Of a stretch of DNA of 64,000 nt, positions 25,054 through 52,213 are shown in pieces (position 1 is the stretch's first letter; each line of letters opens with the position of its first letter). The notes beneath the pieces are model-generated. The model ran no database searches. It saw only the letters and a list, made by a program, of their open reading frames with translations, and was not told the DNA's origin. The stretch comes from Sedimentisphaerales bacterium (GTDB lineage Bacteria > Planctomycetota > Phycisphaerae > Sedimentisphaerales > SM23-30). Both the position numbers and the translations under genes were made by a program. The DNA lies in the NCBI GenBank assembly GCA_963663965.2, contig CAXXFK010000030.1:96001-160000 (forward strand). The letters run 5' to 3'.

Positions 25054-25487
25054 GTATTCTGGCCGGGATTTTTGGGCAGCGATGGGGGGGAAGGGATGTA
25101 ACTCGTTGTATATAGTTAAGATATATACATGTGTGGCCGGCGAAAAAATTTTTGTTTTTTCCCGGGCCGGTGGCAGTAGGGTTTTATCGGACCGGTTTAT
25201 TGCATATAAACCCTACAATCGTAATAAACGCACCGGGGAACCGGGTGAAATCGAGTTTCGGCCGGGTTGCCGGGCGGTTTTTTTTATCATTCCGGGCTGT
25301 CTATTTTGTAGAATGAAGGTACGAAGCGTTTTTATCTCCTTTCGCGGCGCTTCCGCCGACAGTTGCCTCCAATGCCCTGTGCAGCTGCCGGCTCTTTTTT
25401 TATTGGGTTGGGACCCGCAAACCCGAAGTTGAAACTGCGGGCTATTTACGGTTGTCCCTGCCGGGACATAAGGTTTGGTACCTATTT

Positions 25488-25709: not shown

Positions 25710-26237
25710 GCGGAGCTCCTTTCCTGCCTGGGCGGTTAAGCCGCGGACGATATCAGAAGGTATTTCACACAAAGGTAAACAGCCAAAAGCGAGACCTATG
25801 AACACGGATAATTACAGTTTGATTCCGGATCTTAGGACCTTTTATTTTGTTGGGTATCTGCTATCGTTTTGGCCGAAACGTCTGGAGTATGATAGCAGGA
25901 TTGTTGGGGGAATCCAAGGATAAAGGGCGGGGGTGGGCGGGACCTGTTGGGGTGAAGTTGGGCGGGAAGTGGCTGTTGGGTTCGTTTGGAGTTGGAGGTA
26001 AGTTGTTGGGGTGTCGGGAATAATCCTGGATAAGGATGGCCGGGGTATGTGTTGGGTTTGGACCCGCAGTTGAAACGGCGGGGTATTTACGGTTGTCCCT
26101 GACGGGACATAGAAAGGGGTATCCCGCGGGGCGGGATGCTGTTTAATGGTTGTTGGTTGCATAGTTTTGTCCTTGTTTGGGGTTGTTGATTTAATTGGGA
26201 CGTTATTAAAAATATTGGGCAGGATGCCCGAGGTACG

Positions 26238-27675
26238 TTAGTAGTGGGTGGTGGTGATTTTGGAGGCGGGGGCGAGGTGGTTGACGAAGAAGTAGCGGAA
26301 GTGCGTCGATGATGTGGTCGTGGGTACCGTCTTTGTGGGGGAGTTCGGAGAGTGAGCCGGAGTTGAGGCGGGCGTATTTGAGGCTGGTGAGGGCCTGGAT
26401 GAGGTGATGGCATTGTGGGTTGATGATGAGCTGGGGTTGGCCGGTGGCGGGCCGGAGGGCGCGGCGGATGAGTTCGACGCCTTCGATAATGCGGGTGGGC
26501 CGGTAGCGGAGCGAGTAGCCCTGGGCGGCGAGTTCGTCGATGGGGCCGGTGCCGGTGATGTCGTTGCGGTGGCGGCCGGCGGGATCGCAGCTGATGGTGA
26601 GGGGGGCGGGCCAGAGATCGCGCAGGGCGCGGAGATGCTCGCCGAGGATCATGCGGGATTGGAGGTATTCGTTGAGGACGCGGACCTGGCCGCTGACGAT
26701 CTGGATGAGCAGGGCGGCGAGCGGGTTGCTGTAGCCGAAGTCGAGGGACCAGTAGACGGGTGAGCCGGGGTCGAGCCGGATGGGGGCGAGGTGAGCGGCG
26801 GGGTCGAATTCGTCGAAGACGACATCCTGGCGGGAGGGCTCGAGGCAGAGCATTTCGGAACGCCAGGCGGCGCGGCTGCTGCGCTGTTTGATGGCGATGG
26901 CGTCGTCGATGGCGAAGTAGCCGGCGGCGTTTTGGGCGCGGGACTGGCAGTCTTCGAGGAGCGGGCAGCGGCTGCAGTTGTGGTCGGAGCAGGGCTGGAT
27001 GACTTCCCAGAGGCACCAGCGGAAGAGGCGCATGTGGGTATCGGCGGATTGCCGGACGATATCGTGCATGAGGCCGAAGGGCTGGTGCATGGTACTGAGG
27101 ATTTCGAGCCGGGCGGGGATCTGGTCGCGGGTCTGGGTGGTGAACTGGGCGGCCTGCCAGACTTCGGGGTCGAAGAGTTCGATTTCGTCGCAGCGGAGGC
27201 GCTGAACGTGTTTGCCGCGAACGCTTTTCTGGGATTGGGTGAGGATGTCGACGCGGGCGCCGTTGGTGAAGCGGCAGTGGTCGGCGCGGGCGGGTTCGGC
27301 GAGATAGGGGCTGAAGCCGGCGTCGAGGTAGTGGCGGAGGTAGTTGTACATGAGGCGGGACTGGTCGTGGGAGCCGCCGAGGATGCAGGTCTGGATGTGG
27401 GGCAGGGAGAGGCATTCGATGAGGGTGGCGACGGCGCCGAGCTGGGTTTTGCCGCCGCCGCGGTTGGCCCAGACGATCAGGTCGCGGGGATGGGCGCGGT
27501 TGAGGATGCTTTCGCAGAGGTAATCGAAGGGGGAGTCGTGGTTAGGGCAGATGGATTGGGAGGGGATTTTGAGGTTGAGGGTGGTGAGGAATTGGGTTAG
27601 TTCTGCGGGGGTTTGGGGTGGGGTGATTGGGTTGGTTTGGGACGTTGAGTTGTTGTTTTCAAATCGAGAATACAT
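26238..27675 (-). CDS. terL: Phage terminase large subunit-like protein (1-nt frameshift near the C-terminus)
   Basis: Walker A ANRGGGKT, VRG, Walker B LRCDEIE, motif III ILST, nuclease LDFGYSNP, CDPAG, DHIIDAL. Removing one base at 26297-26298 restores DALRYFFVNH...HY* with stop at 26238. GGAGGT RBS. Confidence 0.85.
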
Positions 27676-27911
27676 AGCATGACCTCCTTTTTAAAAAAGT
27701 ATCTTTTGATTTTTTGAGTTTGTATACCGACTTCGTAATTAATTATTTATTGGTACCTTAGAGTACGATTAAAAGTTATTTTTGGCCGCATGTGGGCCGG
27801 CCTCATGCGGATAATTTAAGGTATTCGCTGCGCTCATGGATGTTCATATCAGCATGGGCAAATTTTTCAAATTTGCCCATCCTACATAAAATCGCACGGG
27901 TTGTGTTTATC

Positions 27912-28448
27912 CTATGTGATCATTAATTCATTGTTATAAATGGTGTTACGATCATTTTTTTCTACATTGGGTTCGTTTGGTATTGGGGGGTGTTTGGCTT
28001 CGTTTGTGGTAGGAGTGGCGTTGGGATTGCACTGGATGATGGGGGTGATCTGGTAGCCGGCGTCAAAGAGGATGTTTATGCAATTGTCGATGACCTGTTG
28101 ATATTCCCGGTCAGTGGGCGGGGTAAGAATGTTGAGGTCGTCATTTGATTTGGAAATGGCGAGAAATTGCTGGATGAGTTGGGCGGTGGCGCGGCGGGCG
28201 GTGATGTTATTTTCTGAGCGGGACTGGACGACGAGGCGTCGGAGGGCCTGGTGGCCGGCCCGGGTGGCGGTGAGTTTGTAGTCGCGGCGTTCGTAGGCGA
28301 TCAGGCCGGCCAGTTCGCAATGGTAGGTGTGGGTGTCGATGATGTACTGGCGCTGACGGTGGGTGGTGTTGATGATGGCGAGGAACAGGTCGTTGACGGG
28401 ATGGTGGTAGTATTGGGCCCGGGCGAGAATTTGCATGGCTCGATTCAT
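27912..28448 (-). CDS. Hypothetical protein upstream of terL (small-terminase position)
   Basis: MNRAMQIL... with AGAGGTG RBS and its own promoter; no motif recognised. Confidence 0.6.
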   Translation of the reverse strand: MNRAMQILARAQYYHHPVNDLFLAIINTTHRQRQYIIDTHTYHCELAGLIAYERRDYKLTATRAGHQALRRLVVQSRSENNITARRATAQLIQQFLAISKSNDDLNILTPPTDREYQQVIDNCINILFDAGYQITPIIQCNPNATPTTNEAKHPPIPNEPNVEKNDRNTIYNNELMIT

Positions 28449-28520
28449 GGTTTCACCTCTTTTTCTTTGTCTGCGATTTAATAAATCTGCCGAGTTTGAC
28501 CAATATTGGCCGACTGTGGG

Positions 28521-28549
28521 ATTATAGGGGAAGTTTTGTAATAAGTCAA
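28521..28549 (-). promoter_or_regulatory. Near-consensus sigma70 promoter
   Basis: Minus strand TTGACT-17nt-TATAAT with an AT-rich upstream region. Confidence 0.75.
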
Positions 28550-29056
28550 TATATAATATTATTATTTTGTAAAATAACACAAAATATATATTAGTTTTTG
28601 TTTTGAAAGCAATAGGTCTTATAGGTCCGATAGGGCTTATAGGTCTTTAAGATGTTTGTTTTTAGTTGGTTATGGTTATTTTTGGGTTTTGTCAACTAAA
28701 TAATTATCACTGTGTTTAATAGATTTTGGGCGTTTAACGATGGCTAGAGGTGTGGTTGGGTGATCAGGGGAGGTCGGAATGTTGACTGGGGTATTCATCA
28801 GTTTATGAGGTATGGAAATTTAAGGGTGTTTAATCTGGGATTCATATAAAGTCGTGATACCATTAAAGCAAATTGCTGAGCTTTACTGGTTAAGTTTGGA
28901 GTTAATAAAGGTTGATATTGGAGTTGGTTGGGGGTAGAATCCGGTGAAAATTTGGTCAAATAGAGAGATTAAGATAAAAACGGCTTGTTGATTCTGGTCA
29001 TTGGCAAGCGGTAGAAGTAAACGAATCATGACTAATGAAGGTTCAGAGGATCTGAC

Positions 29057-30184
29057 ATGAATGAGTTTCGATTAGCGAGAAACGGTTTGCTAAGCCTGTT
29101 ACTGCTGGGCGGGTTTGCTTACGCGACGAGCCAGCACCCTTTGCCGGTGGATAACCGGGCGCTTTATACGATGTCGTGCGCGGCGTGTCATGGTCATCAG
29201 GGTCGGGGCGCGCCGGCGGGGATGGTGGGGTTCGATGTGCCGTTGCCGGATTTCACCGATTGCAATTTTGTGACACGCGAACCTACCGCGGACTGGATTA
29301 TCGTGGTGCAGGAGGGCGGCCCGGCGCGGGGTTTTTCCGAGATCATGCCGGCGTTTGGCGATGCCCTGACCGTCGAGCAGATCACGTCGATCCTGGCGTA
29401 TATCAAAACGTTTTCCGATTGCGACGAATGGCCGCGGGGCGAAATGAATCTGCCGCGCGCGCTTTATACCAGCAAGGCGTTTCCGGAAGATGAACTGGTT
29501 TTGAGCAGCGATATTTCCACGGACGGTCTGAATAAGTTGAGCAATAAAATGATTTATGGCAAGCGGATCGGCGCGCGCAGCCAGATTGAAGTGACCCTGC
29601 CGTTTGGCTGGCAGCAGATCGAAAAGGGTGATCCGGGCGGCGAGCGGGAATGGACCTCGGAGCTTGGCGATCTGGCGCTGGGTGTCAAGCATGTGTTATT
29701 TCATAATTTCGATACCAAATCGATTATTACGGTCGCCGGCGAGATTGTGCTGCCAACGGGGGATGAAGACGCCGGTTTTGGCGACGGCACCACCGTTTTT
29801 GAGCCCTACCTGGCATATGGCCAGCTATTTCCGGCCGATTTCTTTTTTCAGTGCCAGGGCGGATTCAAATTGCCGTTTGAGGACCAGGACTTTAATAAGG
29901 AAGCGTTTTTTAAAATGGCGGCCGGTAAAACGATTTCGGTGGGGCGGTATGGCAGAGGCCTGTCGCCCATGGTGGAAATCCTGGGCGCCCAGGACCTGGA
30001 AACGGGTGATACGCCCAGCTGGGATATTGTGCCCCAGATCCAAATTCCTTTGAATACGCGCCAGCATGTGCGGCTGGGGGTTGGGGCACGCATTCCGTTA
30101 AACGACCGGGATTTTCGCAGCCCGGTCTATGGTATTTATTTATTGTGGGACACCTTCGACGGCGGTTTTTTTGACGGTTGGTAA
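29057..30184 (+). CDS. Monoheme cytochrome c fused to a probable outer-membrane beta-barrel domain
   Basis: Signal peptide, CAACHG, MPAFG; C-terminal alternating beta-strand pattern (LGDLALGVKH, LPTGDE...GFG). Confidence 0.75.
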   Translation: MNEFRLARNGLLSLLLLGGFAYATSQHPLPVDNRALYTMSCAACHGHQGRGAPAGMVGFDVPLPDFTDCNFVTREPTADWIIVVQEGGPARGFSEIMPAFGDALTVEQITSILAYIKTFSDCDEWPRGEMNLPRALYTSKAFPEDELVLSSDISTDGLNKLSNKMIYGKRIGARSQIEVTLPFGWQQIEKGDPGGEREWTSELGDLALGVKHVLFHNFDTKSIITVAGEIVLPTGDEDAGFGDGTTVFEPYLAYGQLFPADFFFQCQGGFKLPFEDQDFNKEAFFKMAAGKTISVGRYGRGLSPMVEILGAQDLETGDTPSWDIVPQIQIPLNTRQHVRLGVGARIPLNDRDFRSPVYGIYLLWDTFDGGFFDGW

Positions 30185-30200
30185 GCTAAGGAGCAAACTT

Positions 30201-31823
30201 GTGAAACATCATTTTAATCACATTGACTATATCGGTATCTGGATTGTTGTATGCGCGCTGGGCGGCTTTTTGTATGGCAAGCAGGCGCCTCAGCCGTTAT
30301 TCATTACCTCGGACCGCTGCATGGCCTGTCATAACGGTCTGACCGACGACGCCGGCAAGGATGTCTCGATCGGGGCTAACTGGCGCGGGTCCATGATGGC
30401 CCATTCGGCTCTCGATCCATATTGGCAGGCCGGGGTTCGGCGCGAGATTATGGAACATCCGGAGGCAAAGGAGGCCATCGAAGACAAGTGTTCATCATGC
30501 CATATGCCCATGGCGCGATTTATGGCGAAAGCCGGTCAGCAAAAGGGCCAGGTATTCGCGCATCTGCCTTTTACCCGGATGATGGGTGCGAACGCTCCGC
30601 TGGCGTTTGACGGGGTGTCCTGTACGATGTGTCATCAGATCAGCGCGGAGAAGCTGGGTACGAAGGAGAGTTTTACCGCCGGGTTCGTGGTCGATACGGT
30701 TAAACCCCTGGGCGCACGCACGGTCTATGGCCCGTTTGAAATCGATCCCGGTCGGCAGCGGGTCATGCGGTCTTCGGCGCTGTTAGAACCTGCCGAAAGC
30801 AAACATATCCAGGACTCATCTTTTTGCGCTTCGTGTCATACGCTTTATACCCATTCGCTGGGGGCGGACGGTGAAGTTGTGGGCGAACTGCCGGAACAGG
30901 TGCCTTATCTGGAATGGTATCACAGCAGCTATAAAGATATCCGGAGCTGTCAATCCTGTCATATGCCTGAGTTGAAGAACCCGACGCCGGTTACTTCGGT
31001 GTTGGGAATCGCGCGGGAGGCCTTTTCGCGGCATGTCTTTCGCGGCGGTAATTTCTTTATGCCGAAAATCTTCAATCTCAATCGCGTCGAACTGAGTGTG
31101 CAGGCGTTGCCAAACGATCTCGATCGAATGGCCGAGGAAACGGCCCAGCATCTGAAGGATAAAGCGGCCGGCCTGACTATCGAGAGCGCCAAACTGGGCG
31201 ATGGTGAGATACAGCTGGACGTCCGGGTTCGCAACTTAACCGGGCATAAACTGCCGACGGCTTATCCGTCGCGGCGGGTGTGGCTGGCGCTGGATGTGAC
31301 CGATGAGAAGGGCCGGACGGTCTTTTCATCGGGGAAACTGAATAAGGACGGTTCGATTGCGGGCAACGATAACGACGCGAACGCGGCCAAATACGAACCG
31401 CACTATGACCTGATTACCCGTTCGGACCAGGTGCAGATTTATGAATCGGTTATGGCCGACTATGAAAACAAGGTTACCACCAGTCTGCTGGCCGGATTGC
31501 GGTTTGTTAAAGACAACCGCGTTCTGCCCCGTGGATTCGATAAAAAAACCGCTGACGACGATATTGCGGTCCAGGGAGCGGCGGCGCGGGATAGTAATTT
31601 CGATGGCTTCGGCGATATCGTTAAGTATGCGATCAAAGCCGATAACGCCGCCGGGCCGTATCGCGTCAGCGCGACTTTGTACTATCAGCCTATCGGATTC
31701 CGCTGGGCCCGGAACCTTAACGAGTTTAAGGCGATGGAAACGGAGCGGTTTGTGAAATACTATGATGAGTTGGCCCATTTATCCGCGATTGCGCTGGCGC
31801 AAGAGGCGGTTGTGGTGGAGTAG
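30201..31823 (+). CDS. Pentaheme cytochrome c
   Basis: Five CxxCH motifs (CMACH, CSSCH, CTMCH, CASCH, CQSCH); GHKLPT; AAGGAG RBS before GTG. Confidence 0.9.
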   Translation: MKHHFNHIDYIGIWIVVCALGGFLYGKQAPQPLFITSDRCMACHNGLTDDAGKDVSIGANWRGSMMAHSALDPYWQAGVRREIMEHPEAKEAIEDKCSSCHMPMARFMAKAGQQKGQVFAHLPFTRMMGANAPLAFDGVSCTMCHQISAEKLGTKESFTAGFVVDTVKPLGARTVYGPFEIDPGRQRVMRSSALLEPAESKHIQDSSFCASCHTLYTHSLGADGEVVGELPEQVPYLEWYHSSYKDIRSCQSCHMPELKNPTPVTSVLGIAREAFSRHVFRGGNFFMPKIFNLNRVELSVQALPNDLDRMAEETAQHLKDKAAGLTIESAKLGDGEIQLDVRVRNLTGHKLPTAYPSRRVWLALDVTDEKGRTVFSSGKLNKDGSIAGNDNDANAAKYEPHYDLITRSDQVQIYESVMADYENKVTTSLLAGLRFVKDNRVLPRGFDKKTADDDIAVQGAAARDSNFDGFGDIVKYAIKADNAAGPYRVSATLYYQPIGFRWARNLNEFKAMETERFVKYYDELAHLSAIALAQEAVVVE

Positions 31824-31932
31824 TTGTGTGTCATTTGTGAGCCTGATAGAGACGCAAGGCCTTGCGTCTCTACTGTTGGGCTTTAGTGATGGGATGGAGA
31901 GGTTGAATTTTAAAGGCGATGAGGTGTGAGTT

Positions 31933-32358
31933 ATGCGTGAGAAGAAGATCATTGGGCGGATTATATGGATTGGCGTTGTTTTGGTTGTTGCGGCGGGAGT
32001 TGTTTTTTGGGGGTATCGATGGTGGAGAGAGCGAATGATAGTTGGTCATCCCGGGGGTGTAAAAAGCCAAATGAAGATGTTTGTAAGTGCGCTTGAAGCT
32101 TACCGGATCAGTACGGATGGGTATCCGGATAGCGAGTTGGGGTTGCAGGCATTGTTGGTGGAGCCGCCGGGAGTAAATGGGTGGGCGGGGCCTTATCTGA
32201 TAGATCCCTGGATTCCGCGGGATCCGTGGAATAGCGCTTATATTTATGAGTATCCCGGGCGGATTCATCCTGATTCGTTCGATCTGATCTGTATCGGGCG
32301 GGATCGAGTGAGGGGGAGCGCTGACGATATTGTGATGTCGGGGTTGAGCCAGAGGTAG
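31933..32358 (+). CDS. Orphan GspG-like (T2SS pseudopilin G domain) protein
   Basis: YP...GLQALLVEP...WAGPYL...PRDPWNSAYIYEYPG; no GFTLIE prepilin motif. Confidence 0.75.
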   Translation: MREKKIIGRIIWIGVVLVVAAGVVFWGYRWWRERMIVGHPGGVKSQMKMFVSALEAYRISTDGYPDSELGLQALLVEPPGVNGWAGPYLIDPWIPRDPWNSAYIYEYPGRIHPDSFDLICIGRDRVRGSADDIVMSGLSQR

Positions 32359-32840
32359 TAGTTGGGTTTGTTGGGGGTGGTTGGCGGGAAGAGGGTCATG
32401 CCGGCGCGTTGGAGGAAGGGGTGGAACTGGCCCAGGCGGGTGAGGCATTCGATGGCGGAAACGTTGAGGAGCGGGAGGGTGTTCTGGACGAGGCGGGGGC
32501 CGAGGCCCCAGCCGCGGAGGAGCGGGTGGATGACGATGCGGCTGAGGCAGCGCATGTCGGTATTGAGGCGGGTGAGGTGGCGGCCGCGGACTTCGGGCGG
32601 GTAGAGGCCGTTGAGGGCCTGGGAGCGGGCGGCGGAGTTGGGGATGCAGTAGCCGTAGACGATGACGCCGGCGAGCCGGTTGGGGATGGCGCGGAGGCGG
32701 GGATGGTCGGGGAGCTGGAGGGCGAAGATGCGGGCGATGGGGCCGAGTCTGGGGTTGCAGTAGTGGTATTGGGCGAGGGAGCGCCAGGCGGCGCGGTCGG
32801 CGGGGATGACCTGGGATGACTGGATGAGTGAACCGATCAT
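32265..32840 (-). CDS. GNAT-fold acetyltransferase-like protein
   Basis: WRSLAQYHY; LSRIVIHPLLRGWGLG acetyl-CoA-binding motif; AAGGAGGT RBS. Confidence 0.75.
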   Translation of the reverse strand: MIGSLIQSSQVIPADRAAWRSLAQYHYCNPRLGPIARIFALQLPDHPRLRAIPNRLAGVIVYGYCIPNSAARSQALNGLYPPEVRGRHLTRLNTDMRCLSRIVIHPLLRGWGLGPRLVQNTLPLLNVSAIECLTRLGQFHPFLQRAGMTLFPPTTPNKPNYYLWLNPDITISSALPLTRSRPIQIRSNESG

Positions 32841-33604
32841 GATGGGGACCTCCTTTTTCAAGATATTAGAGCGGGTTTCACACGAAGGCACGAAGCCACG
32901 AAGATTAACAGCCGAAAAGGCGAACCACGAATTCACACGAATGGACACTAATATTAGATAAAGAATATATATTAAAAATACAATAATACTATATCAGGCT
33001 AGTATTGCACATAGGTGTAAAGCCGTAAAAAAAACAGCTAAACAGCCGATAGAACCACGAAGCGCCTTCGGCTTCACGAAGAGCGCCTGCGGCGCTACAC
33101 GAAGGGCCGGTGGCCTGGTTTAGAGTTAAGGATATCGATAGTTTGTTTTTGGGATGAATCATAAGGGACCGCGTTACTGAAAAAGATAAAAAAGGGTAAC
33201 AGCCGGTAGAACCACGGAATACACGGAACACACGGAAAAAAATGCAATAGTAATAAAATAGATATATAATATATAATAACGTAATAGCGTGCGAGGCGTT
33301 GGCTGGTTTTGAGGTTAGAGGGCTTAATATTTTGTTTTTGGGATGAATCATTATGATTGACTCGATTAATGGGTATAGGTGTTCACATAGTCATCGCTTT
33401 GGAATTATGCTGCCCTTGCAGGGCGATAGCTGTCCCGGCGGGTTCAGACCCAGGGTTGCACTCGCTGCGCTCGTTTTCCCTCTGGGTTATGTTATAATGG
33501 CCCCGCCTGAGGCGGATCTTCGACCTCCGGGCCGTTTAGGTAACCGCCTTCGGCGGAAACTATTTTTGTGTGTTCACTAACTAATGGGTTATGGTTTGTT
33601 GCTT

Positions 33605-34282
33605 TCATGGGTCATTCTTTGGTTGGTGGTGGCTGGTCTGGGACTGGCCGTTGGGGTAGCGGCGGATGAGGGTGTCGGGTTGGAGGTCATCGATGAGGTC
33701 GTCGCGGTGTGAGGCGAGGATGAAGCGGGTGTGGGACCGGCGTGACCATTGTCGGATGCGGTGGCAGAGTCCGGCGGCGGTGATGAGGTCGAGTGAGGCG
33801 GCGAATTCATCGGCGCAGATAACGGCGGGTTTGAAGCTCATGGCGCGGGCCAGTCGGAGGCGATCGAGTTCGCCGACGCTGAGGTTGGGTCGCAGCCAGA
33901 CGGCCGGTTCGCTGAGGCCGGCGAGGGTGAGGAACTGGAGGGCCTGGTCGAGCGGCAGGTGGTTGAAGCAGTCGGCGGGCGCGGCGCCGGAGGGAATGGA
34001 GATGGCGTTGAGGTCAACGAGCTGGCGCGGATCGGGCCAGGCGGTGTGCAGGTGGCGGAGGATGGCCTGGAAGGTGAGTGATTTGCCAGAGCCGCTGGGG
34101 CCGGTGAGGTAGACGATCTGGCCGGGGGACAGGCTGAAGGGTCGGGGCGGGGCCGGCTGGAAGGCGGGTTGGCGTTCTATGGGCAGCCCAAAATGGCGGG
34201 CCAGTTCGAGGCCGCGCGCGCTGAGAAATGGGGTATTTGTGTTATTGAGATCGGCGAGATTTATCGTGCATTGAGTTCCCAT
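33605..34282 (-). CDS. Stand-alone ABC-type ATPase (no permease)
   Basis: GPSGSGKS, LSVGE signature, ICADEF/SLD, ILASH; GGAGG RBS. Confidence 0.85.
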   Translation of the reverse strand: MGTQCTINLADLNNTNTPFLSARGLELARHFGLPIERQPAFQPAPPRPFSLSPGQIVYLTGPSGSGKSLTFQAILRHLHTAWPDPRQLVDLNAISIPSGAAPADCFNHLPLDQALQFLTLAGLSEPAVWLRPNLSVGELDRLRLARAMSFKPAVICADEFAASLDLITAAGLCHRIRQWSRRSHTRFILASHRDDLIDDLQPDTLIRRYPNGQSQTSHHQPKNDP

Positions 34283-34301
34283 GGTTTTCCTCCAAATATT
34301 T

Positions 34302-34730
34302 TCATCCGCATTGCTGGCGGGTGAGTGTGTCGAGTCGGTTCTGGATGGTTTCGATGCGGCGTCGGACTTCGTAGCTGCCGAGTTGTCGTTTTTGTGCGAT
34401 TTTGCGGTAGCCGAGGTTGAGCATGAAACTGTCGTAGGCGATCTGGCGGTCGAGGGGGTGGAACTGGTCCCGGTGGCGGATGATATCGATGTAGCGGCCG
34501 TGGATCAGGCGGCGGGAAAGGGATTTGATGCGGGAGGCGATGGTTTTTTCGGAGGCGTGCAGCAGGCCGGCCAGGGACCGGATGGGAATATGGTGGATGA
34601 GATGGGCCTCCATGAGGGTTCGTTCGTGGGGCTCGAGCCATTGCAGTCTGAGGCGGACGGCTTCGGTGAGATTGGGGCAGCGGCCGGGATTTCTGGCGGA
34701 TTCGACCGAGAAATTATCCAGATTTATCAT
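34302..34730 (-). CDS. Tandem HTH (sigma region 4-like) protein
   Basis: IPIRSLAGLLHASEKTIASRI and LGYRKIAQKRQLGSYEVRRRI; AGGAGGT RBS. Confidence 0.65.
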   Translation of the reverse strand: MINLDNFSVESARNPGRCPNLTEAVRLRLQWLEPHERTLMEAHLIHHIPIRSLAGLLHASEKTIASRIKSLSRRLIHGRYIDIIRHRDQFHPLDRQIAYDSFMLNLGYRKIAQKRQLGSYEVRRRIETIQNRLDTLTRQQCG

Positions 34731-34969
34731 ATAACACCTCCTGTTTTATTGTTGCATATACCAATAACATATGATATAATATACTTAACAGGAAACTATT
34801 TCCAGGAAAAAATATTAGAAATGTATAAAATAATCTGTAATTAGTTGACAAGAAAACATTTTGGTGCATAATTTTATTTGAATAACTGGATTTTTAGTTC
34901 CTTGGGTTATTAAAATATGAATGAAGACGTTTGATCACTATTAACTGAAAAAAAATTTAACCGGAGGCG
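34731..34969. promoter_or_regulatory. AT-rich divergent control region
   Basis: TTGACA-16nt-CATAAT at ~34845-34872 toward the repressor; weak minus-strand promoter toward the HTH gene. Confidence 0.5.
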
Positions 34970-35764
34970 ATGGCCATGTCATTAGGATCGATGATTCGTA
35001 AGAAGCGTGAAGAAAAAGGTTTAACACTTGACGAGATGAGCCGGCGCACAGGCTACAGCAAGCCCTATATTTCAACTGTGGAGACGGGCCGGGTGAAAAA
35101 TCCGCCAGCGGATGAACTCTTGGTGAAGCTGGAAGAGATTCTGGAGTTTGATGACGGGACATTATTACACATTGCGCATATGGAAAAACTGCCGACGGAT
35201 ATCCGTCAGGCGTTTGAGGACAGTCAGGCGGAGAATGAGCACTGGCGCTCGTTGTTGAATGAGATGATCAGCAAGCAGCCTGAGCTGGGCAAGAAGATGA
35301 AGTCAGACAAGTTTTATGACAAGATTCTGAGACCGGACCAGAACTTTATCAAGATGGCGACGGCTGGCCGGATGGTGCCGGTGATTAACAAGGTCACCGC
35401 GGGTTATCCATTGGATTACGATGATATGGGCTATCCACCGGGCAGCGCGGATGATTATATCCGGTGCACCGACCTGCATGATCCGAACGCGTTTGCGGTG
35501 CGTGTAGTGGGTGATTCGATGGAGCCGAAGTATATAGAGGGAGATATTGTGGTGTTTTCACCGAACAGCCAGGTGGAGAATGGCGATGATTGCTTTATCC
35601 GGCTGACAGATCCTCATGAAACGACGTTTAAGCAGGTGTTTTTTGAGGATTCTGGTTTGATCCGGTTGCAGCCCCGGAACCATATTTATCCGCCGATGAT
35701 TTTGGAAGAGAGTAAAGTGAATGGAATCTGGAAGGCGGTGATCCGACAGGAACGACTGGACTGA
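34970..35764 (+). CDS. CI/LexA-like repressor (XRE HTH + S24 peptidase)
   Basis: N-terminal XRE HTH; VTAG cleavage-site motif; VVGDSMEP catalytic Ser; TTFKQ catalytic Lys. Confidence 0.9.
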   Translation: MAMSLGSMIRKKREEKGLTLDEMSRRTGYSKPYISTVETGRVKNPPADELLVKLEEILEFDDGTLLHIAHMEKLPTDIRQAFEDSQAENEHWRSLLNEMISKQPELGKKMKSDKFYDKILRPDQNFIKMATAGRMVPVINKVTAGYPLDYDDMGYPPGSADDYIRCTDLHDPNAFAVRVVGDSMEPKYIEGDIVVFSPNSQVENGDDCFIRLTDPHETTFKQVFFEDSGLIRLQPRNHIYPPMILEESKVNGIWKAVIRQERLD

Positions 35765-46931: not shown

Positions 46932-47020
46932 AGGGCGGTCAAGCCACAAGCAAGAAAATATATCTCACACGAAGGCACGAAGATACAAAGTGAAACAGTC
47001 AGGAAGGTGAACTGCGAATC

Positions 47021-50000
47021 TTATCTTAATGCAACATTTAAGACAAACATTTTGATATACAAACCGTTTTTAGATAAATCATTTGCTTGCTTTTCAAGAC
47101 CTGCTTTAAGGTCGTTTATCGCCCCCTTCTGACATGGCTTTGTCTTTTTTATATTATTCTTATTTCTACATGTTTGGTTATAACAAATTGAACAACCATA
47201 CCAACCCACTAGATATAAACCATATTGGCAAGAATTATCTTTTAAATAGCGATCGACCAATTGATTTTTCATTGCATTATAAATATCGGTATGCCAACAC
47301 CCCTTACATTCGATAATTACTTTTAAACTTGGTCTGTTATCCGTTGCCGGCAATTCAACAGTAATATCAAGATTCTCCCCGGGTCGATTTCCACGACCTT
47401 TTCGAATTTGAGGCTCTCTTGTTGTTATAATACGCTTTTTCAAATCATCATCCAGATGTCTCTTTATGTAATCTGAAAAAGTATTTTCATCTTTAGGACG
47501 ATATTTTTTCTGATCCATGTGATTCCAGAGATCAATCGCCGCAGGCGTTTCACCTTGAAGTTTTTGCTCTAGTTTTTCAAGCGATTCAAGAATTATATCC
47601 AACAATTCGCTTTCACATCTAATGTTTCTAATATCTGGAGACGACATCATTTGATAGAATTCGTGAATTGTTAGCGGTTCCCAGATATTACGTCTTGTAT
47701 TCTCTTTCGCTATTACTAGAGTTCTATTCAGCCATAAATACTCTGGAAACTCCAATTTGATAATTTCAATAGCTTTACACGCTTCAACAGATCCAATGTT
47801 TTTAAGGTAAGACAAAAGGTTATCTCGAAACTCAACAATACTATCGCGGCGTCCGACAAAATGGCTTTCATTAAGCCTGGGATTTTCGGAGGATGGGAAT
47901 TGTTTAACCATCCATATGTAGAGATTAGCTATTTCTGTTTCATTTAATAGGTGCGAAATATTTGTATTACCGTTACCTGAAACACACGCGTATTCCAGAA
48001 ATAATTCTTGACCAAAATTATTATCTCTATTTATTTCATGCCATAAAATATTCCAAGCGCCATTAACTTCACCGGTCATAAGAGCTATAGACGCCGCAAT
48101 TTTTTTGATCTTATCACTTTCTTCTTCCGATTGTAACACTGCCAGCGCTTTCACATAGTCTATTGCTGGTTGGTATTTTTGAACTAATAATAAAGATAAT
48201 ATATGGCAGATTGAACTACTTTGTTTTGAAGTGAACTTAAGTCGGCTAATACTTTGTAATACGGTCTCACACATATTATTGTCCCAGCAACCATCCAGTT
48301 TATCACACACATCATTATGGCGAGCATGATTAAAATCTACTTCTATTAGCAATTCTACATTTCGCAATAACGTTTTTGGGCATTTATGGTAAGCCATTGA
48401 CAACAATTTCTTTTTAATGTCAAGTTCTTTGTCTGAAAACGATATCCCTATTAAATATGGCACCCACTTTTCCCAAATATCAATATTCAGATCATCAAGA
48501 ATTTCTGGAGCATTTATTAACAGTGTTGCAAAGGCTTTGTTTGAAGAAATGTCTGTTATATGCCATTGATTAGGCTCATTGATCCATTTCATGGCATCAG
48601 GAAATTCTTTAATCAGAAATTGTTTAGCGGATTTAATAATTCTTTTTTTTGTTAAACAGTCTGCTTTAGTCCAGCCTGGCAACTCGGAAATATTTAACAA
48701 TGACCATTTTGCAGCATCATAGTTTTCATCAGTATCTTCAAGCGTTAAATCAAAGCATAGTTCATGCCATTTTTTATAATCACCGTTTTCTATAGCATTT
48801 AACCAATGCTTCACTCTATCTGCTGGAAGCCAATCGAGGGTTTGGGATGCAATATTTTTGTTTTGTTTTTCTTGCCATTTTTTATTTTCGATGAAATCCT
48901 CTCGATATTGTCGAGCTTTTTCAGAATTTAGATCAATCGGCATTAATCCTAAAGTATCACACAATTCACTTGACTCGTTGACTGCCTCTATAATCATATT
49001 ATTATACGATATGTTTTTGCGGTCATATTGAAATAATAATTGTTGTAATACTTTGCCCCATTTCTGTGAAAGCGGCAGATTAGTAGACTCTCGATAATTT
49101 TGTATTAACCATGGTATATCTTCAATTGCTATTAAATTTGGCATTCCATAAACCATCTGACCTGCTACTTGGAAAATTGAATCGATGTCACATAATTCAA
49201 CAATTCTCTTAACTAAAATTCGACTATTGACTCTGTTTTCAAATATTGCTTTATTACTTTCATAAACCTCCTTGCTTTCAATCAGAGATTCACGAATGAT
49301 CAATAGTGTAATGCAGAGATGGGCGAGAGAAGTTATCACATATTCATTGTCAATATTCCCAAAAGCTTTTAGCACTAAAGAGTCTTTGGTTCTGTTTAAT
49401 CTATCAGGAAAACGTTTTTCTATGTGATTTTGAAGCCATTTTATAGCACGTGGTAAATCGTTCGTTTCAAGATTTTCAACAAGCAAATTTTCTAAAAAAC
49501 TAGTATACGCAGAATAACTATAACGTTTACGTGGCAAATCCAAATATTTAAATAATTCTTCTGCTTCAATCAAATTCGGCCATAAAGACTCACATGCATA
49601 TCCTTTTAATGATTCTTCATCATCAGTATTAGTGTTTAGAAAAAGCAAAGGTTTCATTTTAATCTTGATATTGTCTTCTGCAACTTCACATATATAAGCT
49701 GCGGCAGCTATTCGTAATCGAATAGCTTCTTGATGATTAAGGGCAATATCAAGAATGGTTTGCTGTAAGCCTATTGTTCGACTAATGCATGCGATATGAA
49801 TCAGAGATTCTCTTACATAAATATCAAGCTGTTGGTTTTCTATATATGGTTTTAATTGATTGGACAAACCAGGATGGTTTATTTTCTTATAATCGACATA
49901 ATTTTGCCAACCGAATACATTAATTTTTCCACAGGCTAATAAGTCAATAATACCTTGGGCAAGACATTCAAGTTCAGCAATTGAATAATGACAGATATCT

Positions 50001-51262
50001 CCCTTAAGCAACACTTGAGGATCGTGAGTTGCAATATAATGAAAGGCATCTTTTCGATAACTAGCAATCCATGCGGCAACTTCAGTCAATTGAGGTATTA
50101 CTTTTATTTCTGAATCAAATTGAATGCAAAGTAAATTTTCGATTAATTTCAGCTTAATTTTGCTATCGACAATGTGCTTTGATGCCAAGTACTCTGCATA
50201 TCCTTGATGAACAAAACCCAACAAGTCATTACCCCTTAACGAGAATAATCCTGTCTGTAGCGTGTCATTTATCTCAGATCTTGAACAATTAACAACTGAA
50301 ATTAAATCTAAAACAGAAAGTTGATTGTTTTTTAATTGTTTTGCAGGCCCATCATAAAATTCAGATTTATTACATAATAGTGAAATAGCCGCAATTTTTG
50401 AAGCAATCTCCCGCTTTTTATATAAAGATGTTTTAGAATTAAGGCTATTGGATAGGTCTATCCAGCTTGGATTATATTCTTCACAGAGAATTTTACAGCC
50501 TTCTTCAAACAATTCTTTCTTAGTAGATGGAAATTTATTGTGATTTTGATACAAATTGATTAGAAAATTAAGCGTTAAAGGTTTAATTGCAAAAGGCACA
50601 ACCTCTATTTCCTCAATCCCTTTAAGGAACAAATCTGGATTTATATTGTTCGTTTCAGCAGCTTCTCGAACATCCTTTCTTCGTAATGGTGTAAGTTCAT
50701 AGATAGCATATCTATTGGTATCTACTGAATTATTCGTATTATTCCAAATCAAAGGGAGGCGATTATTAAATACAGTTGGCCAATCGGCCGAACGGCATAC
50801 AATTCTAAGTCTAAGACGAGATAGATGACTTTGGATAGCATTCAATTCATCGCAGATAATATTGGCTACTGTTGGAATATGAATTCTACATTCATCAAGG
50901 CTATCTAAAAACAGATCAAGAGTGTGATCGTTATTCAACCAGCTGATAAAATATTCTGAACGAAATATGTCATCGATCAATAATGAACTTTCACAGTATC
51001 GATTCAAATTAAAATTCATTATTTTTGAATTTGTATTTGATTGTGATCGGCATATATCTTCAATTGCTGTTGATTTTCCTATACCAGGTTCGCCGAGAAG
51101 TGCCAGACAGGGCATATTTGCAATCATTTCGTAAGAAACGATATCTGGATTAAAGAGTTTGAGACTGTCATTTTCAGGATCTGACATGAATCCATTATCG
51201 CCTAGATGAATTTGTCCTGTGTGAGGACACCAAAAACGTTTCCACTTATATTTTACCTTCAT
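47021..51262 (-). CDS. STAND/NACHT NTPase with C-terminal PD-(D/E)XK-like nuclease (Avs-like antiphage protein)
   Basis: Walker A LGEPGIGKST, Walker B LFLDSLDE, IVCR, KPLTL, FVHQGYAEYLA; C-terminal E..FSD...DI....IIECKGCW...QL..RYL...GLYLVGW; much lower GC than neighbours. Confidence 0.8.
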   Translation of the reverse strand: MKVKYKWKRFWCPHTGQIHLGDNGFMSDPENDSLKLFNPDIVSYEMIANMPCLALLGEPGIGKSTAIEDICRSQSNTNSKIMNFNLNRYCESSLLIDDIFRSEYFISWLNNDHTLDLFLDSLDECRIHIPTVANIICDELNAIQSHLSRLRLRIVCRSADWPTVFNNRLPLIWNNTNNSVDTNRYAIYELTPLRRKDVREAAETNNINPDLFLKGIEEIEVVPFAIKPLTLNFLINLYQNHNKFPSTKKELFEEGCKILCEEYNPSWIDLSNSLNSKTSLYKKREIASKIAAISLLCNKSEFYDGPAKQLKNNQLSVLDLISVVNCSRSEINDTLQTGLFSLRGNDLLGFVHQGYAEYLASKHIVDSKIKLKLIENLLCIQFDSEIKVIPQLTEVAAWIASYRKDAFHYIATHDPQVLLKGDICHYSIAELECLAQGIIDLLACGKINVFGWQNYVDYKKINHPGLSNQLKPYIENQQLDIYVRESLIHIACISRTIGLQQTILDIALNHQEAIRLRIAAAAYICEVAEDNIKIKMKPLLFLNTNTDDEESLKGYACESLWPNLIEAEELFKYLDLPRKRYSYSAYTSFLENLLVENLETNDLPRAIKWLQNHIEKRFPDRLNRTKDSLVLKAFGNIDNEYVITSLAHLCITLLIIRESLIESKEVYESNKAIFENRVNSRILVKRIVELCDIDSIFQVAGQMVYGMPNLIAIEDIPWLIQNYRESTNLPLSQKWGKVLQQLLFQYDRKNISYNNMIIEAVNESSELCDTLGLMPIDLNSEKARQYREDFIENKKWQEKQNKNIASQTLDWLPADRVKHWLNAIENGDYKKWHELCFDLTLEDTDENYDAAKWSLLNISELPGWTKADCLTKKRIIKSAKQFLIKEFPDAMKWINEPNQWHITDISSNKAFATLLINAPEILDDLNIDIWEKWVPYLIGISFSDKELDIKKKLLSMAYHKCPKTLLRNVELLIEVDFNHARHNDVCDKLDGCWDNNMCETVLQSISRLKFTSKQSSSICHILSLLLVQKYQPAIDYVKALAVLQSEEESDKIKKIAASIALMTGEVNGAWNILWHEINRDNNFGQELFLEYACVSGNGNTNISHLLNETEIANLYIWMVKQFPSSENPRLNESHFVGRRDSIVEFRDNLLSYLKNIGSVEACKAIEIIKLEFPEYLWLNRTLVIAKENTRRNIWEPLTIHEFYQMMSSPDIRNIRCESELLDIILESLEKLEQKLQGETPAAIDLWNHMDQKKYRPKDENTFSDYIKRHLDDDLKKRIITTREPQIRKGRGNRPGENLDITVELPATDNRPSLKVIIECKGCWHTDIYNAMKNQLVDRYLKDNSCQYGLYLVGWYGCSICYNQTCRNKNNIKKTKPCQKGAINDLKAGLEKQANDLSKNGLYIKMFVLNVALR

Positions 51263-51443
51263 ATTTCTCACAATATCATTAAACTCCTATGTTCCAATTC
51301 AATATTCATCCTTCATAAACTAAGTGCTCGGTGGATGCCATGTTGACGAATGGGCGGAGTATGTTGGGATCAAGATCAATAATGTTTGAAGTATCAATGC
51401 CTTTTTTTACAGAGAAAGTCTTATACTTAGTCTTTTGGCAAAT

Positions 51444-51821
51444 TTAGTACCCTTTGGTTCTTGAAATGACTTTTCCTGATTTAATAACAAAACTATCTGA
51501 TTTACCAGCATGATAGAACAGGAGCAGTTCAACTATATTACCTTCAGGATCAAGTGATTGTGAGGTAAGTTGTGGTTTTCCATAAAGACAAAACAGAATT
51601 AGCCGATTCATGCCTAGTTCAAATTCAGCTGACTCTACTAGCTTCCAGTCAAGTTCTGAGAATAACCTGCGGTGATCGATCTCTTGCTGAGCTTCAGGGG
51701 ACTTGGTTAAACACCATTGGATACATAATGCATCATCACTAAGAGAGGGATATTGAGAGGATGGTACCAACGAACTACACCCAATAAGCAAAAATAGAAT
51801 AGGGCATATAAAAGTACGCAT
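51444..51821 (-). CDS. Putative lipoprotein
   Basis: Lipobox LLIGC; GGAGGT RBS. Confidence 0.65.
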   Translation of the reverse strand: MRTFICPILFLLIGCSSLVPSSQYPSLSDDALCIQWCLTKSPEAQQEIDHRRLFSELDWKLVESAEFELGMNRLILFCLYGKPQLTSQSLDPEGNIVELLLFYHAGKSDSFVIKSGKVISRTKGY

Positions 51822-52213
51822 AAATACCTCCTGCAACTTGAAATAAAATGGCTACTATATATTTTTGTTTAAAATAACAACCTTAAATTTTCTGAACACA
51901 TAAACATAAGTATATATAAATTGTTTTAGCGAGCAAGCATAAATTGAGAGAAGGTGAGATGAAGTGCGAAAAGGTATCAAAAGTGAAATGGTTGGGATAG
52001 GATGGGCACGAACGTTCACAGACCTGTACGGACAGGCACGAAAGAGGTGCGGGGAGGATGTGTGTAGTGCAATGGGGGGATTGGTTCTTTGAATGGGAAT
52101 TTTGGATTTGAAAAAAAGATAAATGGGGGGAAGAAAAAGGGCAACCACGGGGGGTTGCCCGTACACGGGGGGGGCGTTGGCGGGGCAGGAATATAATGGA
52201 TGGGTACGGACGT

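Follow-up and report, generated by a model that had tools for sequence, protein, structure and literature searches.

The window analysed here, a 64-kb stretch (positions 96,001 to 160,000) of contig C30 (CAXXFK010000030.1) in the assembly GCA_963663965.2 of a Sedimentisphaerales bacterium, holds between its positions 26238 and 35764 a cassette of six genes of phage type. A CI-type repressor diverges from five minus-strand genes, which encode a tandem helix-turn-helix (HTH) protein, a soluble ABC ATPase, a GNAT acyltransferase, a diverged small terminase (TerS) and the large terminase TerL (Table 1). The original prediction for this locus, made from the sequence of the window, had the gene content, places and strands right, both for the six cassette genes and for the cytochrome pair, the gspG-like gene and the DUF502-hpf-EIIA/PTS cluster next door. 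A Shine-Dalgarno-like site precedes all 6 of the 6 cassette starts, in agreement with the strong sites that had been claimed. The host-like composition also read from the locus held for codon use, which lies at the 70th–99th percentile of host genes in the same strand class, but the GC content of third codon positions (GC3) of ABC, GNAT and TerL (0.80–0.88) is above the genome's 90th percentile (0.70); GC3 of the adjoining host genes is also high, at 0.75–0.78.

Table 1 Features of the cassette and of the sequences inserted in it (window coordinates)
Feature	Position	Strand	Evidence
CI-type repressor, HTH_3 + peptidase S24	34970..35764	+	Pfam, PHROG
Divergent control region, AT-rich, between repressor and operon	34731..34969		sequence
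Tandem sigma70-region-4-like HTH protein, probable late activator	34302..34730	-	weak Pfam matches
Soluble ABC ATPase, terminase-adjacent phage type	33605..34282	-	phrog_293, E 1e-19
GNAT acyltransferase, partner of the ABC ATPase	32265..32840	-	phrog_886
Diverged small terminase (TerS-like)	27912..28448	-	hhalign to TerL-preceding family of relatives
Large terminase TerL, likely true stop 26238-26240	26206..27675	-	PHROG TerL, E 3e-12
Genome-wide intergenic repeats, inserted	32949..33604		23-44 BLAST matches for 3 stretches tested; contig depth raised
Cytochrome c pair, inserted host genes outside the system	29057-30184 and 30129-31823	+	Pfam
gspG-like pseudopilin, inserted host gene outside the system	31933-32358	+	Pfam

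A cassette conserved across the Phycisphaerae

The order of the cassette is kept across the class Phycisphaerae, and the synteny expected in relatives was found: in 21 loci a divergent repressor faces HTH-ABC-GNAT-(ParB)-TerS-TerL, with flanks that vary. TerL has a match in 51 of the 61 genomes of the order, among them 39 of its 40 good ones; usually it occupies a single place per genome, even in genomes of ~2 Mb. In the class as a whole it is matched in 132 of the 201 genomes, also counted as 130 of 198. Strong TerL matches outside the class came from only 3 genomes of a phylum-wide sample, a scan of viral contigs returned 0 loci, and the closest TerLs of cultured phages are 24–28% identical. 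In one genome, G025 (L041:8897-10476), two further genes, for a DUF1376 protein and an HNH endonuclease, separate ParB from TerS within the cassette.

TerL has descended largely with its hosts. Trees were compared for 30 genomes with RpoB as one host marker and with FastTree supports; 20 of 27 splits are common to TerL and RpoB, and of the 15 strongly supported TerL splits 13 recur in the RpoB tree while 1 conflicts with it. The ratio of nonsynonymous to synonymous substitution rates (dN/dS) between relatives is far below 1, at 0.055–0.174 for TerL in 10 pairs (an eleventh was saturated), 0.04–0.27 for ABC, 0.07–0.18 for GNAT, 0.08–0.27 for the HTH gene, 0.10–0.22 for TerS and 0.02–0.16 for the repressor; in the pair G037/G042, dS is 0.73 for TerL and 0.63 for RpoB. 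The Walker A, Walker B and coupling motifs of TerL and its three nuclease aspartates are invariant in 60–61 of 61 orthologues. The long residence, vertical descent and purifying selection that had been proposed for the locus all hold.

The two terminase genes

At 26299, past the final nuclease aspartate of TerL, the assembly carries a single extra base, and the resulting frameshift had been seen from the start. Because 60 of 61 TerL orthologues read on in the other frame past this point, and because a contig of another sample (a single one of 237 nt at depth 5.2) lacks the extra base and is otherwise identical, the base probably reflects an error in assembly or else a rare variant, and the real decay that the frameshift might have signalled is not borne out.

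The gene between GNAT and TerL, first listed as an unknown ORF, is a diverged small terminase. It occupies the TerS position of relatives and aligns with their TerL-preceding family at an hhalign probability of 85% (E 6e-6), and 11 of 19 members of that family match the TerS family phrog_2538. The candidate explanation of a stray mobile gene was replaced on this hhalign and PHROG evidence. The structure model is poor (pLDDT 56.9) and a fold search with it gave no match; in the Atlas the ORF falls only among viral hypothetical clusters (0.86). The gene has 19 matches, in ~15 copies, at unrelated intergenic sites of the source genome, and none in 60 relatives. In a comparison of 11 copies, dN/dS is 0.28 for the ten outside the cassette when set against one another, and 0.49 when they are set against the copy inside it. 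The dispersed copies lie on contigs C1, C2, C10, C11, C13, C15, C22, C27, C28, C35 and C41 (e.g. L192-L195), with Asn/Pro-rich tails and frames that are mostly open and sometimes broken, and no transposase was seen beside them.

Two satellite-like elements, at tRNA-Thr and tRNA-Leu of the source genome (L311:11900-16852 on C22 and L312:674-5991 on C24), each carry an integrase (short or partial in C24), an excisionase-like regulator, replication genes and a more typical TerS of the cassette family; both elements may be passengers of the host's particle.

A head operon at a distance

In the genome G131, the genes immediately after TerL encode a portal of SPP1 type and a capsid of the SU10 family. 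A search with these two located a single portal gene and a single capsid gene in the source genome, at C30:195.4-198.7 kb. The pair lies outside the window, 35 kb past its end and 72 kb away from TerL, in an operon of portal, scaffold, capsid, adaptor and eight genes without family names. The guess that the structural genes lie elsewhere thus proved right, with portal, scaffold and capsid on the same contig, and the statement that portal and capsid are missing is true of the window only; no PF00589 integrase was found in the window (serine recombinases were not searched for). The cassette and the head operon lie ~0.7 Mb apart in G037 and far apart in closed genomes, and are joined in G131. The capsid is present in 49 of the 61 genomes of the order and in 117 of the 201 of the class. 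Counted on strong TerL matches, with 7 weak rows dropped, 113 of the 201 genomes have both TerL and capsid, 12 have TerL only, 4 have the capsid only and 72 have neither; no p-value is attached to these counts, since kin are not independent.

A tyrosine recombinase gene (303 aa) 1 kb past the head operon has no counterpart by clustering at the other 19 head loci, and judging by its size it is probably the host XerD. Also just past the operon (L313:5298-8566), a two-gene unit that ends in a presumably PEP-CTERM-like tail stands in three tandem copies.

Six of the 12 TerL-only genomes belong to a sister TerL clade, in which the 4 loci with the next gene scanned have another portal type, in prophage-like modules, and whose members are likely mobile relatives of the ancestor. 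In the sister-clade loci L293, L294, L297, L298 and L299, some have ParB-ABC-GNAT-TerS, with another portal and capsid. These prophage-like head modules, together with the insertions, repeats, missing ParB and frameshift of the source assembly, would suit a cassette that is itself an ordinary or decayed prophage. Such an origin is highly improbable and largely refuted by its single-copy presence in 39 of the 40 good genomes of the order, a distribution that is not patchy as for inducible prophages, by the host-like tree and low dN/dS, by the lack of a fixed attachment site and by the absence of the frameshift from another sample; the view that this is not a recent prophage was sound. No replication genes were found among the scanned neighbours of the cassette and head loci, and the window has no tRNA gene.

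Two phage contigs of IMG/VR carry a lone intact capsid gene of the SU10 type (L081:5970-7124; L082:7023-8183), which sits among replication or early genes and methylase genes, with the system's portal absent within the 17–18 kb examined. Both nest inside the host capsid tree, one of them with family f9 (support 1.00, 80% identity), a sign of conflict or hijack. These captured capsids, and the frequent loss of tail genes while the head stays, are what would be expected of an anti-phage device, in which the host terminase and capsid would, after damage or infection, mis-package or cut phage DNA or poison head assembly in the manner of satellites. Defence systems are, however, patchy and fast-moving, whereas the motor and head here are complete, slow-evolving and single-copy, with a TerL that follows the host tree, and we consider such a device unlikely.

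Control of the cassette

The Ala-Gly site and the catalytic Ser-Lys of the repressor are invariant in 22 of 22 cassette-linked orthologues, and with its HTH and S24 domains and a RecA gene in the genome it has the make-up of a RecA-cleavable repressor of the CI/LexA type; we infer that it self-cleaves on RecA and places the system under SOS control. Counting unlinked cases, the repressor has a match in 52 of the 61 genomes of the order. It adjoins the cassette in 22 genomes and lies elsewhere in the genome in the order's other families; several families have it at a site apart from both cassette and head operon. Contig C29 of the source genome holds another S24 gene, which by eye is LexA-like, and the cassette repressor is not the host's canonical LexA.

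The tandem-HTH protein is a probable late activator, as judged from its orthologue, which matches sigma-factor and Q-like PHROGs, and from Atlas clusters of Planctomycetota sigma70-r4 proteins (score 0.94–0.98). Its gene is present in 18 of the 21 cassette loci; a search with its profile, made without a positive control, gave no match in 5 genomes of families f11, f23 and f25. Upstream of the gene lies an 18-bp palindrome, which reaches 13.2 bits where two shuffles gave 8.7 and 7.9. It scores at least 10 in 10 of 16 genomes of the order, 5 of those 10 being without an adjacent repressor, and only 4.9 in the source genome, where the scanned stretch excluded the last 25 bases. The same motif search found no convincing motif upstream of the repressor and portal genes.

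The ABC-GNAT pair and a second type of head

The Walker A/B and signature motifs of the ABC ATPase are conserved in 35–36 of 37 sequences, and an orthologue is 34–39% identical to the ABC genes of phages nickie, SSU5, Cyrano and RHEph10. GNAT, of which 14 of 20 orthologues match PF00583, is often fused to the ABC ATPase in relatives. The Foldseek matches of its model (pLDDT 88.7) are headed by Mu Mom (E 1.5e-5), TmcA and NAT10, although by VIA Mom is tied with ordinary GNATs (Z 12.7 vs 12.9). Orthology to Mom was considered and finds no support in profile comparison (hhalign probability 0.4%). By eye, the invariant His-Tyr and Arg of the family recall H58, Y59 and R111 of Mom as given in passages of PMC13219725; the family keeps an acyl-CoA-type motif, whereas Mom uses glycyl-tRNA and acts on DNA adenine. 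We suspect that the substrate is DNA, and DNA acylation is a lead only, as it rests on gene neighbourhood and fold rank.

The four phages named above have ABC, GNAT (25–27% identical), ParB and TerL genes homologous to those of the system. The order in nickie, ParB-ABC-GNAT-TerS-like (DNA-binding)-TerL-portal-capsid, is the same as in G131, where the cassette runs into portal and capsid. The phage module differs in that it belongs to replicating phages, and the portal and capsid of nickie do not match the system's profiles. We found no tested function in the literature for this terminase-adjacent ParB-ABC-GNAT module.

GNAT is present in 150 of the 201 genomes, including all of families f11 (9/9), f23 (11/11) and f25 (1/1), although these lack the system's TerL and capsid. 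In these three families GNAT is fused to an ABC domain, 9 of 12 such loci lie behind or near an HTH_3-S24 repressor, and the ABC-GNAT orthologues form one clade inside the host tree. The notion that ABC-GNAT had outlived all packaging genes in f11 and f23 was overturned by the finding there of a Mu-like module of TerL, portal, protease, capsid and adaptor, in two scanned ABC-GNAT genomes (L330:11564-17870, L332:11578-17435). The Mu-like capsid occurs in 28 of 201 genomes (f11 8/9, f17 3/4, f20 7/8, f23 9/11, f24 1/1), with zero overlap with the 117 that have the SU10-type capsid, the lists being compared by eye. Such mutual exclusion suggests selection for a packaging function and not for one ancestral phage, and the Mu-like module is a candidate second domesticated particle. 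ABC-GNAT is retained in most of the families with the Mu-type head, but the link is not strict, since f20 and f24 have the Mu-like capsid without a GNAT match and f25 has GNAT without either capsid.

A candidate gene transfer agent

We think it reasonably likely that the locus is the regulatory and packaging half of a phage-derived particle system that was domesticated early in the Phycisphaerae and has a role like that of a gene transfer agent (GTA). DNA-filled particles are probably made by the host itself, and a GTA not yet described is the likeliest identity for them. At the level of sequence, domestication, selection, split loci and an intact motor are established, as are three of the six features in the viriform definition of GTAs, as worded in passages of PMC9662315: particle proteins derived from a Caudoviricete (matches to TerL, TerS, SPP1-type portal, scaffold and SU10-family capsid), endogenisation, often at several loci (genomic evidence, with the 72-kb split here), and mostly vertical inheritance, clear for TerL and weaker for the capsid. 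The other three features of the definition concern the particle at work: a cargo of mostly random host DNA, inability to pack its full set of genes, and delivery of the cargo to other cells. With three of the six seen in sequence, we call the system a GTA candidate and not a member.

The following mechanism can be envisaged. The CI-type repressor would keep the divergent operon shut until, after DNA damage, it cleaves itself on activated RecA, and the tandem-HTH protein would then turn on the unlinked head operon. TerS and TerL would cut DNA and pump it into heads, the cargo being presumably the host chromosome, since neither locus was found to come with genes for integration or replication. 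ABC-GNAT might acylate a substrate tied to packaging, most likely DNA; this is the weakest step, and we put it forward tentatively, as more doubtful than the rest. Particles would be released and bring host DNA to relatives, as GTAs do.

Several observations weigh against this proposal. The particles and the gene transfer are predictions from gene content. The head operon has no recognisable tape measure, tail tube or endolysin; in relatives it closes with holin-like and lipoprotein genes, but these do not adjoin it in the source genome. Many genomes keep only portal, scaffold, capsid and adaptor, the middle genes being often lost, and this reduction makes DNA injection doubtful. The closed genome G067 (L046) has the whole cassette, ParB included, and no capsid-family or portal match. 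RpoB and the capsid have 15 of 27 splits in common, and 5 of the 13 strong capsid splits conflict with RpoB. In the source genome itself the cassette is without ParB, insertions interrupt it and its TerS is aberrant; all dN/dS pairs were taken from relatives.

The head-only minimal operons, the G067 cassette and the spread of ABC-GNAT, wider than that of the system's TerL, would also accord with a host-owned particle, DNA-filled or empty, that serves another purpose, such as damage-triggered cutting of the chromosome or release of DNA or other cargo. We hold this to be improbable, as motor and portal/capsid co-occur tightly, and families lacking both carry another complete terminase-portal-capsid set, a replacement that points to DNA packaging as the selected trait.

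As a GTA candidate, the system can be set beside those already described. Like RcGTA/CcGTA (Rhodogtaviriformidae) and BaGTA of the Alphaproteobacteria, it has a Caudoviricete-derived terminase, portal and capsid, and like them, as far as passages of PMC9662315 describe them, it shows vertical descent and has several endogenised loci, at which genes for integration and replication were not found. It differs in its phylum, in descending from another phage (its portal is of SPP1 type, its capsid of the SU10 family, and its TerL shares at most 28% identity with those of cultured phages), in having its own CI-type repressor and ABC-GNAT-ParB genes, and in that no tape measure or tail tube was recognised. 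Membership of the Rhodogtaviriformidae is unlikely because of the portal and capsid families and the planctomycete host. BhGTA (VSH-1) of Brachyspira likewise has dispersed loci with the terminase apart from the head genes, and its induction by DNA damage, reported in passages of PMC9662315, is a precedent for a damage-induced GTA, a control that we infer for the Phycisphaerae system. BhGTA is confined to one genus, with a demonstrated endolysin and demonstrated transfer, whereas the present system is class-wide and a genomic prediction.

GTAs have been proven in only a handful of lineages, and how common they are is an open question. With its repressor, activator and motor named, an independently domesticated candidate that spans a class of the Planctomycetota is open to direct test in cultured strains, and the conserved ABC-GNAT pair offers a route to what the terminase-linked module of phages does and perhaps to a new DNA modification. 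We found no published description of such a system in Phycisphaerae or Planctomycetota among literature listings and the opening parts of abstracts, subscription papers and supplements lying outside the search; a term search of GTA reviews found no mention of planctomycetes. A cultured planctomycete strain with a chronic phage has been described, in passages of PMC10945688 that contain no terminase or capsid terms. What is new here is the packaging and control locus tied to a head operon, the exclusive Mu-type alternative and the expansion of TerS.

A more far-reaching synthesis, which we regard as rather unlikely in its entirety, would run as follows. Most Phycisphaerae would own one damage-induced packaging particle, whose constant core, ABC-GNAT, would mark host DNA chemically and thereby protect it from restriction in recipients. 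Motor and head would be exchangeable, one family group having swapped the SU10-type for the Mu-type head while mostly keeping ABC-GNAT. The particle would in turn be parasitised by phages that capture its capsid and by satellites that carry its TerS family, and the ~15 sites of TerS in the source genome would possibly be extra packaging starts or a selfish rider.

Neighbouring genes and other features of the window

The adjacency to DUF502-hpf is real in this genome, but a fixed site beside these genes was rejected, as the arrangement recurs at just 2 of the 41 other repressor loci, which come from one family; the adjacency is incidental. The cytochrome pair and the gspG-like gene were found in 0 of 59 related loci and are local insertions. 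The interruption of the cassette by repeats and plus-strand host genes, as first described, was confirmed by BLAST of the intergenic stretches and by Pfam: all 7 stretches tested are genome-wide repeats with 5–44 BLAST matches each. Short, partly palindromic repeat families with 7–44 genome matches lie at window positions 25421-25470 and 26062-26111, 27790-27900, and 33040-33530.

The cytochrome genes (29057-31823) encode a cytochrome c fused to a beta-barrel of MetA-pathway type, followed by a multihaem cytochrome, a possible outer-membrane electron-transfer pair. Further along the window, positions 47001-52000 form a low-GC island (32–35% GC) in which the skew is weak or reversed and which was probably inserted recently.

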